Below, in pieces: positions 11,920-36,675 of a stretch of DNA of 64,000 nt. Origin of the DNA: a virus. Taxonomy: Duplodnaviria > Caudoviricetes. Made by a program: the position numbers and the translations under genes. The notes beneath the pieces are model-generated. The model saw nothing but the letters and a program-made list of their open reading frames with translations, was not told where the DNA came from and made no database searches. Each line of letters starts with the position of its first letter. Position 1 is the first letter of the stretch. Where the stretch lies: positions 6,688-70,687 of IMG/VR virus record IMGVR_UViG_2904200584_000016. One strand, given 5' to 3'.

Positions 11920-12261
11920 GTGGTTATTATGGAAAATAAGATACTAGAATTATTACAAAAAATGGATAGTAGTATTAATGAGATGCAAGGAGAAATAAAA
12001 GGAATTAATACTAGATTTGATGGTATCGACAAGCGATTTGATAGTATTGAAAATAGACTTGATGGTATCGACAAGCGATTTGATAGTATCGAAAATAGAC
12101 TTGATGTCATTGAAAAGAAACAAGATATTTTATATAATCAAGCTATTGCAACGGCTGAAAATATAACAGAAATAAGAGAAGATTTAGGAGATGTACAAGT
12201 CACAACGACATGTAATCTAAATGACTTAAAAGAGTTAAAAAAACTTAAATCAGTTAAATAG
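11920..12261 (+). CDS. Coiled-coil protein with 42-bp tandem repeat
   Basis: DGIDKRFDSIENRL repeated twice. Confidence 0.7.
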   Translation: MVIMENKILELLQKMDSSINEMQGEIKGINTRFDGIDKRFDSIENRLDGIDKRFDSIENRLDVIEKKQDILYNQAIATAENITEIREDLGDVQVTTTCNLNDLKELKKLKSVK

Positions 12262-13573: not shown

Positions 13574-14287
13574 ATGCTAAATATATACATAACTAATTTA
13601 GGGAAATATAACGAAGGCGAACTAATAGGGGAATGGGCTAAACTTCCAATAGATAAGGAAGAATTACAAGAAATATTAAATAGAATAGGGATAAATGAAG
13701 AATATGAAGAGTATTTCATAACAGATTTTGAAACAGATATAGAAGGGTTAAAAATAAGTGAATATAGCAATATAGAGCAACTGAATGAATTAGCAAAGGA
13801 ACTTGAGGGGTTAGAAGAATATGAAGTTGAACAGCTAAAGGCTTTGCTTGAACATGGATACATTGATTTTTATGACATGCTTGAAGGGGATATTTGCAGA
13901 CTATCAGATAATTATACTTTTATACAACTTGATGACAGGTCATCATTGGATGATGAAAATTTAGGACGTAGTTATATAGAAGAAATATGTTATGGTGATT
14001 TATCTTGTATAGAAAATATTGATTACTACTTTGACATAGAAGCCTTTTCAAGAGATTTACGTTTTGATAAAGACATAATTATTGAAGATTTAGACGAAGA
14101 AAATATAGAATATTATGAAAATATGACAGATATTGAATTTGCAGAGAATTATATTGAACAATTAGGAGATATTGAAGAGTTAGGTCAAGAAACACTTGAA
14201 AAATACTTTGATTATGAGTTGTATGGAAGAGACTTGCGTTATGAGGGTATTTGCATAGCATCAAATTATTTAGCTATAGTTTTTTAA
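13574..14287 (+). CDS. ardA: ArdA antirestriction protein (DNA mimic)
   Basis: IYITNLGKYNEGELIGEW, EEYFITDFE, YFDYELYGRDL; very acidic; duplicated C-terminal module. Confidence 0.92.
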   Translation: MLNIYITNLGKYNEGELIGEWAKLPIDKEELQEILNRIGINEEYEEYFITDFETDIEGLKISEYSNIEQLNELAKELEGLEEYEVEQLKALLEHGYIDFYDMLEGDICRLSDNYTFIQLDDRSSLDDENLGRSYIEEICYGDLSCIENIDYYFDIEAFSRDLRFDKDIIIEDLDEENIEYYENMTDIEFAENYIEQLGDIEELGQETLEKYFDYELYGRDLRYEGICIASNYLAIVF

Positions 14288-19537: not shown

Positions 19538-19817
19538 GGAGGAATAAAAATGGAAAAATATTTCAAAGAAGAATGGTCTTATATAGCTGATGCAGGATAG
19601 GAAATACAAGATATAGAAAGCACTATAATAACAATAGATGATTTTGAAGTAAGTATAAAAATGAGTGAAGATTTTAGACATAGATGTAATTGAATTTATT
19701 TTAAAAAATTATAAAATTGAATATAAAAATCATAAAGCTGTATTGTTATAATACAGTTTTTTAATACAAAAATACAGATATATCTTGAATAATATTTTAA
19801 AATAGGAGGAAATTAAA

Positions 19818-20303
19818 ATGGGTAAAATGGATAAAAAAGAAGCTAAAAAATTTTTAAAGGTTGTAGATATGAATATAGATAAAATAAAGGAAGAAGCTAC
19901 GAAAATTTATAAAGAATGCTACTTAATAGAAACAACTGATACTATAAGAATTTCTATAAATTTGAAAGGAGTTGTAAAAAGCACAATTTCAAGTTGGCAA
20001 GGCTATTCAGATGATATTTTTAATATGAGAGAAATTATTGTCTATGAATTTAGTCAAGGAGAAGTTCAAATTGAAGATCTTTTAGGAGAACTTTGTTTTT
20101 TAAATGATTACGAAGAATTTGCTACTTGGTGTGACACTGAAAGCGAAACTTTGAATTGGAATAGTTATGAAAAATTCAACAAAGAAAATTTTGACGAATT
20201 AGTCGAGAGAAATATAGAAGATAGTTTACCAGATTTTTTGGAAGAATTGAGCGAAAGTATAGAAAATTGTAAACAAGAATTAAAATCAATGATTGAAATT
20301 TAA
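19818..20303 (+). CDS. Acidic hypothetical protein
   Basis: ORF with AGGAGG RBS; last gene before the mini-array. Confidence 0.7.
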   Translation: MGKMDKKEAKKFLKVVDMNIDKIKEEATKIYKECYLIETTDTIRISINLKGVVKSTISSWQGYSDDIFNMREIIVYEFSQGEVQIEDLLGELCFLNDYEEFATWCDTESETLNWNSYEKFNKENFDELVERNIEDSLPDFLEELSESIENCKQELKSMIEI

Positions 20304-20336
20304 ATGAAAGAGTATTATTATTAATGTATATAGTAT

Positions 20337-20501
20337 CTTTAAGATTAACTACAAGGGATTTAAAATATTTTTTAATTTATTTAGAAATGATATTGTAATA
20401 AGAATTTTCAGATTAACTACGAGGGATTTAAATGGCAATTTAATTTATAGAGAAATGATATAATGGCAATTATTTTTAGATTAACTATTTGGAAATAAAA
20501 A
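20337..20501 (+). CRISPR. Degenerate mini-CRISPR array: three 29-bp repeats, two 39-nt spacers, type I-B-like
   Basis: Repeats at 20337, 20405, 20473 (period 68); repeats 2 and 3 match the clostridial I-B repeat GTTTTAGATTAACTATATGGAATGTAAAT (recalled) at 22/29 and 23/29; no cas operon in window. Confidence 0.7.
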
Positions 20502-20530
20502 CAGTGTATTCGATAAATACACTGTTTTTT
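20497..20530. terminator. Bidirectional intrinsic terminator
   Basis: AAAAACAGTGTATT-CGATA-AATACACTGTTTTT between the array and the convergent gene. Confidence 0.8.
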
Positions 20531-20542
20531 AATGCTAAAGAT

Positions 20543-20842
20543 TTAGTTACTATAATAACTTAATCCTTCGATTATAAATCCTACGTTCATTGTCATTTCT
20601 GCTTCGTCGCTTTGCAATATTCCTTCCGTAAATTCGCTATCGCTTGATAATGTTATTTTTTTCCTTGCCACCATTTCCAAAATTGTTTGAAATAGTTTAA
20701 TTTTCATATTCTTATCAAGTCCAGCGTATTGCAAATAGTTTGCTATTTCTTGTGAAAATTTAGTTAATTCTGATTTAGTCATTTTTTTAGATAATTCTTT
20801 TCCAATATTCAAATAAACTTTTTTAGATTGTTCAACATTCAT
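20543..20842 (-). CDS. Small helical protein, possibly Cas11/Cas8b C-terminal-domain-like
   Basis: ~99 aa from MNVEQ; IGKELSKK...LFQTILEM...FTEGILQSD...VGFIIEGL parallels the Cas8b1 CTD pattern (by eye). Confidence 0.4.
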   Translation of the reverse strand: MNVEQSKKVYLNIGKELSKKMTKSELTKFSQEIANYLQYAGLDKNMKIKLFQTILEMVARKKITLSSDSEFTEGILQSDEAEMTMNVGFIIEGLSYYSN

Positions 20843-21249
20843 TTTTTTCAACCCCTTTTTCAAGTTATAATTCAATTATATTTTAAAAATGCTAATACTT
20901 CAAATATAAATATTTTTGTTTAAATATAAAACTGATTTCAATAATTTGTATTTAATATTTAATAGATTGTGTTACTTGAAGTTAATAAATAAATTAGAAA
21001 GATATATGGTACTAAAATCTAGTAATAAGTTAAAGTATAACAGCACTTTAGGGTTAATTTTGTAGTAAGTATATAAAGTCAATATGCTGTAATTTAGTAT
21101 ATTGACTTTATTGTTTACTTATTAATAGACATAATATTGTAAAAAAATGATATAGTTTAGAAAGATATGTAGATTAAACTTAGAATTAAAAGATTAACAT
21201 AGTATGACAATCGTAATCTCGTGTAGTATACTTAAATTGAGGTGATTAC

Positions 21250-21822
21250 ATGACTTGGAATGATTTGAAAAATAATGATATAACATATATAGTTGAATAT
21301 ATTAATAATAAGTTAAATAATAGTAAGAGCTTGACTAAAGTTGCTATAGAACTTGGAGTGTCTGAAAGCAGTATAAGAAAATATCTCACTAAAAGAGGTT
21401 ATAAGCGTGTAAATGATAAGTATGTGTTTATTGGTGACAATAGTATGACAAAGGTAGTAAACAATAGACAACAGAGTAATAATGATAATACATTTAATAT
21501 GACAATAGAAGATGACAACAGTCACAACATAGTAATTGACAACCAATTTAAAAATAATATAATTTCTTTAGCAAAAGACTATGACAAGATACAGCATGTA
21601 TTAAATTGGTTTGAGAATAAAGAAGATACAAATGTAATAGAGGTTGTACAGGATGGTATTAAGATTGATTTACCTTCAAAAGATGCTATAAGAACTACTG
21701 TTAGGTTGAATAAAGATGCATGGAACTTATTTGATGAGTTTTGTAAAAAGTTTAGAGAGTTTAATAAGTCTGATTTGATGAGCATGGCATTACTTGAATA
21801 CGTCAATAAGTATGATAAATAA
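21250..21822 (+). CDS. DNA-binding protein (N-terminal HTH, C-terminal RHH)
   Basis: SLTKVAIELGVSESSIRKYL; RTTVRLNKDAW...KSDLMSMALLEY. Confidence 0.75.
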   Translation: MTWNDLKNNDITYIVEYINNKLNNSKSLTKVAIELGVSESSIRKYLTKRGYKRVNDKYVFIGDNSMTKVVNNRQQSNNDNTFNMTIEDDNSHNIVIDNQFKNNIISLAKDYDKIQHVLNWFENKEDTNVIEVVQDGIKIDLPSKDAIRTTVRLNKDAWNLFDEFCKKFREFNKSDLMSMALLEYVNKYDK

Positions 21823-21898: not shown

Positions 21899-22072
21899 AT
21901 GGTCGATAAAATAACAATAGATGAAGTACTTGAATTTATAAAATCAAAAGGTTATATATATAGTCAAGAAATTAGAAAAGAATTAGATAATCTTTGTCCG
22001 GTTTCTGATAATGAAATAGATAAGTGTATAGAAGAAAATGATGATGTATTCAGAAGGTTGGCAAGTAAATGA
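21899..22072 (+). CDS. Phd-like antitoxin of Doc
   Basis: 57 aa ending DDVFRRLASK; ATGA overlap with doc; absent from the ORF track. Confidence 0.7.
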   Translation: MVDKITIDEVLEFIKSKGYIYSQEIRKELDNLCPVSDNEIDKCIEENDDVFRRLASK

Positions 22073-22437
22073 TTACACTTGAATATATATGTAAAATTAA
22101 CAAAAAGATGATTGAAAGATATGGTGGAGCTGGAATGGGTATTAGAAATAAAAATCTTGCTATAAGTATAATTGATGGTATAAACCAGGAGGTATTTGGT
22201 AGAGTTATGTATCCTACAGTTGAAGAAAAAATATCTCATATTGTAGTAGGTATTATACAAGGCCATATATTTATAGATGCAAATAAAAGAACTGGATTAG
22301 CTGCATTACTAATACTTTGTGACAAATATAATATAGATGTGAATTATGATAAAGAAAATTTAGCTATAGAAATAGCTTTAAATAAAATAAATGAGTCTGA
22401 TTTGAGTAATATGTTAAAAAAGTGGAATAAAAAATAA
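22069..22437 (+). CDS. doc: Doc (death-on-curing) toxin, Fic family
   Basis: HIFIDANKRTG motif; YPTVEEK. Confidence 0.9.
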   Translation: MITLEYICKINKKMIERYGGAGMGIRNKNLAISIIDGINQEVFGRVMYPTVEEKISHIVVGIIQGHIFIDANKRTGLAALLILCDKYNIDVNYDKENLAIEIALNKINESDLSNMLKKWNKK

Positions 22438-35637: not shown

Positions 35638-36675
35638 GTGAATAAAGATAATTTAGAAACAATTATAGAAGGTTATAAGGTATTTAATCCAGATTGGACT
35701 TGCAGAAATTTTAAATATGAAGTAGGTAAGACTTATGAACATGATGGAGATATAGAAGTATGTGAAGCTGGATTTCATTTCTGTCAAAAAGCAATTGACT
35801 GTTTTAACTATTATTCTTTTGATAATAAAAATAAAGTTGCTAAAATTGAAGCAATAGGATTAATTAAGACAGATGGTGATAAATCTGTCACAAATAAAAT
35901 TACAATAGTGAAAGAAATTGAATGGGAAGAATTATTAAATATTGTAAATATAGGGAATAACAATACAGGATATGGTAATACAGGAAATCGTAATACAGGA
36001 TATTGTAATTCAGGAAATTGGAATGAAGGATGTTGGAATACAGGAAATTATAATACAGGATATTGTAATTCAGGAAATTGGAATACTGGAAATTATAATA
36101 CAGGAAATCATAATACAGGATATTGTAATTCAGGAAATTGGAATGAAGGATGTTGGAATACAGGAAATTATAATACAGGATATTGTAATTCAGGAAATTG
36201 GAATACTGGAAATTATAATACAGGAAATCATAATACAGGATATTGTAATTCAGGAAATTGGAATGAAGGATGTTGGAATACAGGAAATTATAATATAGGG
36301 AATTGTAACTCAGGAGATTGGAACATAGGAGATTATAATGCAGGTGTATTTTGTACAGACGTTCCAAAAATTAGGATGTTTAATAAAGAAACCGATTTAA
36401 CATATGAGGATTGGATGAATAGTGAGGCACGAAATATTTTAAAAAGAAATAGTTATTTAACAAAATGGATTCGCATTGATGACATGACAGAAGAAGAAGA
36501 GAAGAATAATCCAGGATATGAAATTAATAATGGTTATTTAAAGGTGTTTACATTTGAGGAGATGTGCAAGAACATGTGGGATAGCTTAACTGAGGAAGAA
36601 AAGAAAATTATTATGGAAATACCAAATTTTGATAGGGGTATCTTTAAAGAAATAACTGGAATAGAGGGACTTTAA
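35638..36675 (+). CDS. Pentapeptide (NTGxx)-repeat phage protein
   Basis: GYKVF...CEAGFHFC N-domain; 15-nt repeats with an exact 120-bp higher-order period (36001/36121/36241). Confidence 0.85.
   Translation: MNKDNLETIIEGYKVFNPDWTCRNFKYEVGKTYEHDGDIEVCEAGFHFCQKAIDCFNYYSFDNKNKVAKIEAIGLIKTDGDKSVTNKITIVKEIEWEELLNIVNIGNNNTGYGNTGNRNTGYCNSGNWNEGCWNTGNYNTGYCNSGNWNTGNYNTGNHNTGYCNSGNWNEGCWNTGNYNTGYCNSGNWNTGNYNTGNHNTGYCNSGNWNEGCWNTGNYNIGNCNSGDWNIGDYNAGVFCTDVPKIRMFNKETDLTYEDWMNSEARNILKRNSYLTKWIRIDDMTEEEEKNNPGYEINNGYLKVFTFEEMCKNMWDSLTEEEKKIIMEIPNFDRGIFKEITGIEGL

Follow-up and report, generated by a model that had tools for sequence, protein, structure and literature searches.

A putative compound anti-CRISPR island in a phiCD211-like Clostridioides difficile phage, combining an AcrIB2 homologue, a guide-bearing mini-array and a Cas11b-like gene

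We analyzed a 64,000-nt stretch (hereafter the window, in whose coordinates all positions are given) of the 70,687-base IMG/VR virus record IMGVR_UViG_2904200584_000016, centering on a short array of the CRISPR type at 20337–20535, in which three repeat-like units enclose two guides, and on the genes around it. By sequence, the window is that of a phiCD211-like phage of Clostridioides difficile: positions 19800–21088 are 94.7% identical to the large plasmid-like phages phiCD211/phiCDIF1296T and 76–84% identical to many smaller C. difficile sipho- and myoviruses. We propose, at a probability of roughly two in three, that 19818–21074 is a compound anti-CRISPR island directed against the 'partial' type I-B cas operon of the host and largely built of that operon's own parts, and that its array is a Cracr, a viral version of a host regulatory guide. 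The other components would be a homologue of the anti-CRISPR (Acr) protein AcrIB2 and, convergent to the array, a homologue of the small Cascade subunit Cas11b. A preliminary description of this DNA had suggested that the array and the convergent gene could hijack or poison host Cascade, as an RNA anti-CRISPR or repressive guide plus a subunit mimic. Both halves of that interpretation are supported here, in that the repeats are of the I-B family with a guide of repressive type and the gene product is a Cas8b C-terminal/Cas11 homologue.

A CreTA-like module beside the partial type I-B operon of the host

A search of eight genomes of the genus with the phage array returned two chromosomal sites just upstream of cas6 (L196 in genome G004 and L197 in G008), and we found a third host version on a metagenome contig (L205). 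The adjoining operon, with the order cas6–cas8b (464 amino acids, aa)–cas7–cas5–cas3, is the 'partial' type I-B operon, which is the operon required for interference in C. difficile (PMC10732046). The module lies between a neighboring gene and cas6. It starts with a TGTATAAT box, followed by a degenerate repeat (psiR1) that ends GGGATTTAAAT, a 39-nt guide (psiS) and a second degenerate repeat (psiR) with a hairpin. A CCN motif stands 46–81 nt farther on, and then a sequence that matches guide positions 1–5 and 7–11; the 39-nt protospacer contains the -35 box of a TTGACT-N17/18-TATAAT promoter. Behind this promoter are an open reading frame (ORF) for a 56-aa basic, hydrophobic peptide (grand average of hydropathy 0.96, isoelectric point 9.9), an AT-rich hairpin and, about 300 nt (260–285 by sequence) downstream of the start of the small ORF, cas6. 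At least 998 C. difficile contigs carry a homologue of the small ORF. The 17 raw reads obtained from RNA run X22 all carry the L205-type mini-array, and this host version is thus transcribed.

We evaluated pairing by requiring a CCW protospacer-adjacent motif (PAM) and tolerating a mismatch at position 6 (Boudry 2015, PMC4556805). The seeds of the guides in G004, G008 and L205 are TATTT, ATCAA and GTCAA, and each target covaries with its guide. Guide and target agree at 10, 9 and 10 of the 10 seed positions, values that shuffled guides reach 7, 34 and 3 times in 10,000, and the motifs flanking the targets are CCA, CCT and CCG. Beyond position 12 guide and target are out of register. Judged from sequence, such a match of 11–12 nt followed by loss of register is the CreA/CreR signature, indicative of binding without cleavage.

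On these features (a degenerate-repeat creA, partial pairing of guide and promoter beside a PAM, and a cas neighborhood) the host module is classed as CreTA-like, and the 56-aa ORF becomes a candidate CreT-like toxin gene. The module could instead, or also, regulate cas6 by read-through in the manner of CreR. CreTA is the CRISPR-repressed toxin–antitoxin of type I-B Haloarcula and of I-F bacteria (PMC12737573), with which the host module shares two degenerate repeats around a guide, partial complementarity of the guide to a promoter that lies next to a PAM and precedes a small gene, and a cas neighbor. It differs in its product, which would be a 56-aa basic hydrophobic peptide, whereas known CreT toxins are small RNAs (PMC12737573); a CreTA case with a protein toxin is given in 10.1101/2024.01.05.574328. 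Our literature searches found no paper that describes the module in C. difficile, and 'difficile' is absent from the main texts searched on Cracr, Racr and AcrIB4, the three kinds of element with which the island is compared below.

The phage guides resemble the regulatory guides of the host

The array spacers belong to three conserved types, with 17 variants among those of the window, phiCD211, CD1801, phiCD38-2, the CD160 genome locus and 19 IMG/VR loci, and types S1, S3 and S2 open with the same three seeds as the host variants. Guide 1 of the window is identical to the G004 psiS over its first 15 nt. On the CCA-flanked G004 site upstream of the small ORF it matches 10/10 pairing seed positions, with 12 uninterrupted PAM-proximal positions. 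Guide 2 has 14 of its first 15 nt in common with the L205 psiS and matches the CCG-flanked L205 site at 9/10 seed positions, having GGCAA where other phages have GTCAA; the GTC form is found in 7/8 S2 variants and, from a reading of the sequences, would match the L205 site 10/10. Variation within the three types is concentrated away from the seed: variable sites number 2 of 45 in positions 1–15 and 20 of 66 farther out (Fisher p 0.0006). Of the two in the seed part, one falls at position 12, which does not pair when type I CRISPR RNA (crRNA) binds its target. Boudry 2015 names only position 6 as mismatch-tolerant.

Because host guide and target covary in three variants and the phage types match the same seeds, the array is best read as a viral CreA mimic, or 'Cracr' array. 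From its sequence it would be a guide-bearing mimic, for which 'repressive guide' fits better than plain 'RNA decoy'. Cracr RNAs and arrays are CreA/CreR copies carried by viruses; they compete for Cas proteins and hold cas or creT promoters closed, and multiplexing for host variants and linkage to protein Acrs, with which they act in synergy, are frequent (bioRxiv 10.1101/2024.10.29.618823). Like them, the array lies on a phage outside a cas locus, the only cas-derived pieces found being a cas3 3' fragment and the Cas11b-like gene, and it combines several variant guides in one transcription unit, each between host-type repeat-like sequences, next to the gene of a protein Acr. The copied part is likewise the PAM-proximal one, with 9–10 of 10 pairing positions where the Cracr definition asks for at least 9 bp of a host CreA/CreR guide, and in silico the guides find a creT-type promoter target beside a PAM, with CCG as an off-consensus form. 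Compared with published Cracrs, the window array is of type I-B and from a Bacillota pathogen, whereas the 30 arrays of the main text are I-C, I-E or I-F; it has AcrIB2 in place of AcrIF24 as its partner and a Cas11b homologue facing it, and the candidate toxin is a small protein. C. difficile has 0 occurrences in the main text of the preprint, the part counted.

One may postulate an alternative in which the units act as a pure decoy that soaks up Cas6 and Cascade subunits, with the spacers as filler from recent common descent and the guide likeness as a mark of origin. Racrs, or solitary repeat units (PMC10651486), are repeat mimics of this sort, carried by phages with a predicted promoter directly upstream and often with an acr gene adjoining, and single-repeat forms with promoter and terminator do stand right behind the acrIB2 homologues of phiCD506, phiCD481-1, L022 and L024, which have one repeat and no guide and fit the Racr definition; several units would moreover increase the dose. 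The window has three units with conserved guides, whereas Racrs are unassociated with other repeats and act by sequestration only, and the solitary arrangement is restricted to relatives, for example phiCD506 and L022. The main text of PMC10651486, the part covered, names neither I-B nor C. difficile. We regard a pure decoy as unlikely for the array, given that the guides are significantly better conserved in their seed part than elsewhere, that each of the three seed types has its own partner among the three covarying host guide/target pairs, and that arrays keep different guide types together instead of copies of one.

We rejected direct targeting of cas promoters by the guides: a scan of three cas3 loci of genome G001, which lacks the relevant partial operon and the module, for the CCW motif plus seed gave only scattered two-mismatch matches, none of them in a promoter.

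The convergent gene encodes a homologue of the Cas8b C-terminus

The gene that faces the array encodes a 99-aa protein, which the preliminary description had likened to the Cas8b C-terminal domain or Cas11 small subunit. This likeness was borne out. In BLASTP the protein matches residues 376–460 of the 464-aa Cas8b of the partial operon (E 8e-12, 35% identity over 92 columns), and hhalign gives the same pair a probability of 97.2% (E 3e-11); PADLOC identifies the host protein as Cas8b at E 2.2e-146. An AlphaFold (AF2) model from 24 homologues has five helices and a predicted local distance difference test score (pLDDT) of 92. Its top matches in VIA-align are the CasB chain 3wa8_B (Z 7.5, root-mean-square deviation 3.1, 90 residues aligned) and 5u07_B (Z 7.5), with residues 394–498 of 8fcj_I, the C-terminal domain of a type I-B CRISPR-associated transposon (CAST) Cas8, at Z 6.4. 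Judged by titles and lengths, 8 of the 20 top matches are Cas11-family chains, including CasB/Cse2, type I-A Cas11 and Csm2. For a helical bundle, structural Z-scores alone would be unsafe, and the sequence match to Cas8b is decisive. Searches of Pfam, PADLOC and PDB sequences gave no match, and profile comparisons with the Cas8b of the full operon and with the 382-aa protein from G001's third operon showed no similarity. By sequence, the 99-aa protein is a homologue of the host Cas8b C-terminus, that is, of the Cas11b small subunit. The host cas8b has an internal GGAGG, 8 nt and an ATG at Met373 that would give a 92-aa Cas11b, which fits the internally translated Cas11b of EVADES (10.1101/2025.06.06.658234).

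The frame is intact in all 29 phage records that carry the gene and in 76 database proteins, with 47 invariant columns in the 24 sequences aligned. Distant relatives amount to five representatives among 1.84 billion proteins; two of them, P0078 and P0080, are labelled C. difficile, and IMG/VR searches with these two found nothing. P0080 is itself an odd chain of fused small subunits, with four tandem Cas11b-like domains (387 aa, 30% identity).

The gene stands alone in an anti-defence neighborhood, convergent to the acrIB2 homologue and with the anti-restriction gene ardA upstream. A comparable case is AcrIB4 of Listeria. It shares 38% identity with the C-terminal 90 residues of the Cas8b of its host, inhibits the binding of Cascade to DNA and has been proposed to replace Cas11 (10.1101/2023.06.24.545427, 10.1101/2025.06.06.658234). 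Both are Cas8b C-terminal homologues on mobile elements among anti-defence genes. The host genus differs, AcrIB4 homologues being reported as limited to Listeria, and the 99-aa gene is paired with a guide array; the two proteins are likened here by description only.

Farther along the same region lies a second piece derived from the partial operon, a 124-nt fragment of the 3' end of cas3 with 83% nucleotide identity to the gene of G004 (81% for G002 and 77% for G008). The 49-aa ORF that contains it is 68% identical to Cas3 residues 761–797 of 798 (E 2e-13) and is called 'Cas3-HD' in the phiCD211 annotation. Since homology with CD1801 stops near 20932, the fragment is confined to the phiCD211 group. 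It could be left over from the capture, or encode a decoy peptide.

Array and Cas11b-like gene are linked to AcrIB2

The 161-aa protein encoded just upstream of the array is 100% identical to a phiCD211 protein and 50.3% identical to gp27 of phiCD38-2 over residues 3–160 of 161 (98% of the length, E 5e-45). The latter is the validated AcrIB2, an inhibitor of type I-B interference in C. difficile, whereas the split form of phiCDHM13 is inactive (PMC10732046). We assign the window protein by sequence as an AcrIB2 homologue, for which, as a divergent allele, an inhibitor role is presumed. The locus of phiCD38-2 has the same order, the acr gene being followed downstream by a 'highly conserved gene of unknown function'; PMC10732046 neither tests nor identifies that gene and, in the sections consulted, does not mention arrays in phiCD38-2 itself.

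Across the phage records with an AcrIB2 homologue, 29 of 31 have both the array and the 99-aa gene, and all 19 IMG/VR loci with the 99-aa gene have at least one repeat unit. In LIBA6276 and ES-S-0107-01, the AcrIB2 homologue occurs without the 99-aa gene and without the array, and CD160 has the acr gene and a two-repeat array without the 99-aa gene. The preliminary description had called for a check of array–gene linkage in related elements, and this linkage is evident. Its statement that the window has no cas operon agrees with the absence of a cas gene among the annotated ORFs (those around the array and a few elsewhere). It had further placed the array at the end of an ardA-led operon; the ArdA gene is real, but it lies 5.5 kb upstream, and the run of genes ends in the AcrIB2 homologue.

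The linkage bears on a different account, in which array and Cas11b-like gene serve the lysogen: the prophage would provide an extra small subunit and a spare antitoxin guide, and would thereby stabilize the host CRISPR–Cas system or make the host dependent. The 99-aa gene is on the strand of the lysogeny-side genes, and genes on the acr side are highly transcribed in a stable phiCD38-2 lysogen (PMC10732046). RNA-library contigs X1–X3 reach depths of 5,000–35,000 within 20592–20802, inside the 99-aa gene and far above the roughly 280–780 of the flanking contigs, which hints at strong expression in lysogens or at a stable RNA fragment, with the limit that contig depth is a poor measure of expression. 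The array is nevertheless tied to a validated anti-CRISPR family in 29/31 records, and the Listeria analogue inhibits immunity, which the true Cas protein does not (10.1101/2023.06.24.545427, 10.1101/2025.06.06.658234). We give a service to the lysogen little credence.

Structure of the array and comparison with genuine C. difficile arrays

The preliminary description had reported three 29-bp repeats with an exact 68-bp period, closed by a terminator shared with the convergent gene of about 99 aa, and both statements were confirmed. The start-to-start spacing of the three units is exactly 68 and 68, with 100/89/75% identity to the first copy, and Tandem Repeats Finder returns a period of 68 with 2.2 copies, 78% matches and a score of 174. 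It is the entire 68-nt unit that is repeated, the two 'spacers' being about 75% alike. The core AGATTAACTANNNGG has three mismatch-free copies in the 64 kb, all inside the array; at up to two mismatches there are 9 matches where 10.9 are expected, which is not above chance. The whole 70,687-base record contains no further copy of the repeat, as a looser pattern gave four matches, three of them the array units and the fourth one with two mismatches.

The terminator is a perfect 14-nt inverted repeat (20497–20510 / 20516–20529) that begins within repeat 3 and is followed by TTTTTT, and because an A-run precedes it, it can act on both strands. RNA folding gives it as a stable hairpin of the array transcript; a consensus terminator scan did not list the hairpin at 20497–20535. 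Terminator aside, the 209-nt transcript folds no better than shuffled sequences (z -1.59), and Rfam has no match to the array at E up to 1. The sequence of the predicted array promoter stands before the first repeat in all related loci. Promoter-like sites are not enriched in 19600–21300 (16, compared with 15.7 in shuffles), and because they are no commoner than in shuffles the promoter is a prediction only. The idea that the spacers themselves are promoters, raised by a TGATATAAT-like box in each, was rejected on the same lack of excess and because the box lies in the poorly conserved distal part.

The repeats were also said to resemble clostridial I-B repeats, with a plausible 8-nt Cas6 handle at the end of repeat 2. 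The bona fide prophage repeat most often found in C. difficile is GTTTTAGATTAACTATATGGAATGTAAAT (375 copies), and by manual count repeat 2 agrees with it at 22/29 positions. The last 8 nt of repeat 2, ATTTAAAT, are one base away from the genuine ATGTAAAT, so that both statements stand, with the handle as a candidate. All three units have a ATTAACTA...GG core in common with genuine C. difficile I-B repeats. Their endings point elsewhere: GGGATTTAAA(T/A), at the end of unit 1, is common to psiR1 of the host regulatory mini-array and absent from genuine repeats, and the phage ending GGGATTTAAAT is that of host psiR1 and not that of genuine repeats.

These data weigh on the published reading, in which the array would be a genuine small prophage CRISPR array that uses host Cas proteins against competing phages. 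In the phiCD211 record the homologous stretch bears the annotation rpt_family=CRISPR, and the statement that phiCD211 has a four-spacer array reportedly comes from Garneau 2018. PMC10732046 treats the phiCD211 array as an ordinary 4-spacer array. Genuine arrays, expressed from C. difficile prophages, do exist (Hargreaves 2014, PMC4173771; Boudry 2015, PMC4556805), and the window array resembles them in repeat family, in its place in an accessory region of a temperate phage and in its dependence on host Cas proteins. In IMG/VR, genuine prophage arrays of C. difficile use one near-invariant repeat, the GTTTTAGATTAACTATATGGAATGTAAAT named above, with up to 19 repeats of one sequence, and most are preceded by a conserved leader motif ...GGTATTGGAAATGCTAAGTTTATTTTGGG; they too end in a degenerate last repeat and a terminator. 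In nine of the genuine prophage arrays the common leader motif is replaced by another, short leader, whose TGGTATAAT box lies about 30 nt upstream of the first repeat.

Unlike genuine arrays, which have near-identical repeats, the leader motif and many unrelated spacers with protospacers, the window array has repeats that differ among themselves and from genuine repeats, and a short promoter-like stretch before the first repeat in place of the leader motif, which is absent there. Its spacers are alike and conserved across 29 records rather than unrelated and variable. Phages with only 71–74% DNA identity in their acr genes still have about 90% identity in the non-coding array. Unit number ranges from 1 to 4; in the 19 IMG/VR loci, 11 have four, two have three, four have two and two have one. 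Among 50,697 phage records, the array matches 29 C. difficile records and five Cellulophaga records (a 35-nt AT-rich match), and in each C. difficile phage record compared the best match is directly behind that record's acr homologue. No protospacers were found outside homologous arrays in these records, the window or phiCD38-2; in the latter two, no spacer match of at least 70% with a CCW motif lies outside the array. As the array matches only those arrays, the published 'targets in other phages' are most simply homologous arrays, with a repeat in place of the PAM. Taking these observations together, we find an immune array very improbable.

A scan of the genome collection with the repeat pattern returned 26 stretches, nearly all single chance matches and only that of C. 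difficile CD160 (L164) relevant. The CD160 locus (L164/L186, contig C23) has an acrIB2 homologue and, behind it, an array of two repeats with one guide and then a terminator, and these repeats are closer to genuine ones.

That the region is non-functional debris, with host cas pieces (a creA-like array, the cas8b 3' end and the cas3 3' end) captured once by illegitimate recombination and now decaying, is scarcely credible: the adjoining cas3 fragment of 83% identity, the degenerate repeats and their variable copy number would suit it, but the 99-aa frame has been kept at only 35% identity to the host protein, which implies an old capture, with its many invariant columns and a confident model, and the array is conserved at least as well as the neighboring coding genes.

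A proposed mechanism and its difficulties

The compound anti-CRISPR island that we favor would work as follows. The acrIB2 homologue would supply a protein inhibitor of CRISPR immunity. The mini-array would be transcribed from its predicted promoter to the common terminator, host Cas6 would cut the transcript at the repeat-like units, and the guides would be loaded into host Cascade in competition with antiviral crRNAs. Through the 11–12-nt PAM-proximal match, the loaded complexes would be steered to the promoter that the host CreA-like guide keeps shut, which presumably drives the 56-aa candidate toxin directly upstream of cas6, possibly with read-through into that gene. In this way the phage would keep a toxin that guards CRISPR silent while its Acr proteins disable immunity, and its two guides (three in relatives) would cover different host variants. 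The 99-aa protein would most likely join or bind Cascade and act there as a defective or changed subunit, in the way suggested for AcrIB4.

This interpretation must be made cautiously, as a number of observations count against it. Pairing between guide and target extends over just 11–12 nt, and array and host sequences are very AT-rich, which inflates short matches. The CCG of the L205 site departs from the CCW consensus, and guide 2 of the window has a seed mismatch at position 2. The host module is present in only 2 of the 8 genus genomes searched, and G002 has the partial operon without it. Because some phages keep one repeat and no guide, the guide is not indispensable, and a role as decoy alone is possible. 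RNA-library contigs X1 and X2 contain the phage array, yet contigs X1–X3 cannot show transcript ends, strand or level, and the array and the flanking contig have equal depth. For the 99-aa protein, the VIA-align scores of Z 5.5–7.5 fall short of the tool's safe range for a helical bundle, and a Foldseek search of PDB returned nothing at E 0.001 or better, with E-values above 1. There is also a tension within the proposal, since a block of DNA binding like that of AcrIB4 would disable the mimic guides, which need Cascade on DNA. A way out would be for the viral subunit to block, for example, the Cas3 step, or for the two parts to act at different times.

In a more elaborate form the three parts would make up one kit: viral Cas11b swaps into Cascade, the mimic-guided complexes clamp the toxin promoter without licensing Cas3, and AcrIB2 mops up Cas3, so that together they beat a protein-toxin CreTA guard on the sole cas operon that performs interference. 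We regard this version as doubtful; if true, it would be the first RNA guide mimic and subunit mimic functionally matched to each other.

Implications

As a whole, the island is a variant built on the known Cracr, CreTA and AcrIB4 kinds and not a new category. The annotated 'CRISPR array' of phiCD211-like phages, in print a weapon against other phages, would be reread as imitating a regulatory guide of the host. A probable identity, that of a Cas11b/Cas8b C-terminal homologue, can be given to the 'highly conserved gene of unknown function' found behind acrIB2 in most C. difficile phages, and in this species the cas operon proficient in interference may be guarded by a CreTA-like module. If confirmed, the system would show, for type I-B and in an important gut pathogen, defence and counter-defence that are both layered, would explain the partial protection afforded by AcrIB2 alone in a lysogen and would matter for predicting the outcome of C. 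difficile phage–host encounters from spacer matches.

Features of the island and of the remainder of the window

Coordinates of the island features and of the ArdA gene are collected in Table 1.

Table 1. Annotated features of the putative anti-CRISPR island and its upstream anti-restriction gene (window coordinates).
Feature	Position	Strand	Remarks
ArdA anti-restriction gene	13574..14287	+	Pfam PF07275, E 2.2e-41; heads a same-strand run of small genes ending in the acrIB2 homologue
AcrIB2 homologue, 161 aa, acidic	19818..20303	+	ends 33 nt before the array; PHROG 4337 and split-form PHROGs 27416, 30435
Predicted mini-array promoter, TTGAAA-17-TATTAT	20293..20321	+	consensus scan 10/12; -35 box overlaps last acr codons
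Repeat-like unit 1 (psiR1)	20337..20365	+	ends GGGATTTAAAA
Guide 1 (type S1)	20366..20404	+	starts TATTTTTTAATTTAT; putative mimic of host psiS, G004 type
Repeat-like unit 2	20405..20433	+	ends GGGATTTAAAT; candidate 8-nt 5' handle ATTTAAAT
Guide 2 (type S2)	20434..20472	+	GGCAATTTAATTTAT here, GTCAATTT in other phages; putative mimic of host psiS, L205 type
Repeat-like unit 3, terminal, degenerate	20473..20501	+	…GGAAATAAAAA; runs into terminator
Two-way intrinsic terminator, common to array and convergent gene	20497..20535	both	14-nt arms, 100% complementary; 5-nt loop
Cas11b/Cas8b C-terminal-domain homologue (by sequence), 99 aa from ATG	20543..20842	-	five helices; PHROG 4021
Predicted promoter of Cas11b-like gene, TTGAAG-17-TATAAT	20875..20903	-	consensus scan 10/12
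Host cas3 3'-end fragment	20952..21074	+	inside 49-aa ORF 20916-21065

Elsewhere in the window, at 21899–22437, a Doc/Fic toxin gene (122 aa; Pfam Fic, E 6e-11; PHROG 'Doc-like toxin') is preceded by an overlapping 57-aa ORF that is probably its antitoxin. An actin-like segregation gene of the ParM type (ALP_N) at 7061–8053 on the minus strand fits a plasmid-like prophage. Two further genes have internal repeats. In the ORF at 35638–36675, an in-frame tandem repeat at 35962–36344 has a 15-nt period in 25.5 copies, with higher-order periods of 60 and 120 nt and up to 94% matches, and at 12012–12118 a 42-nt repeat (2.3 copies, 96%) lies inside a coiled-coil ORF with weak similarity to XhlA.

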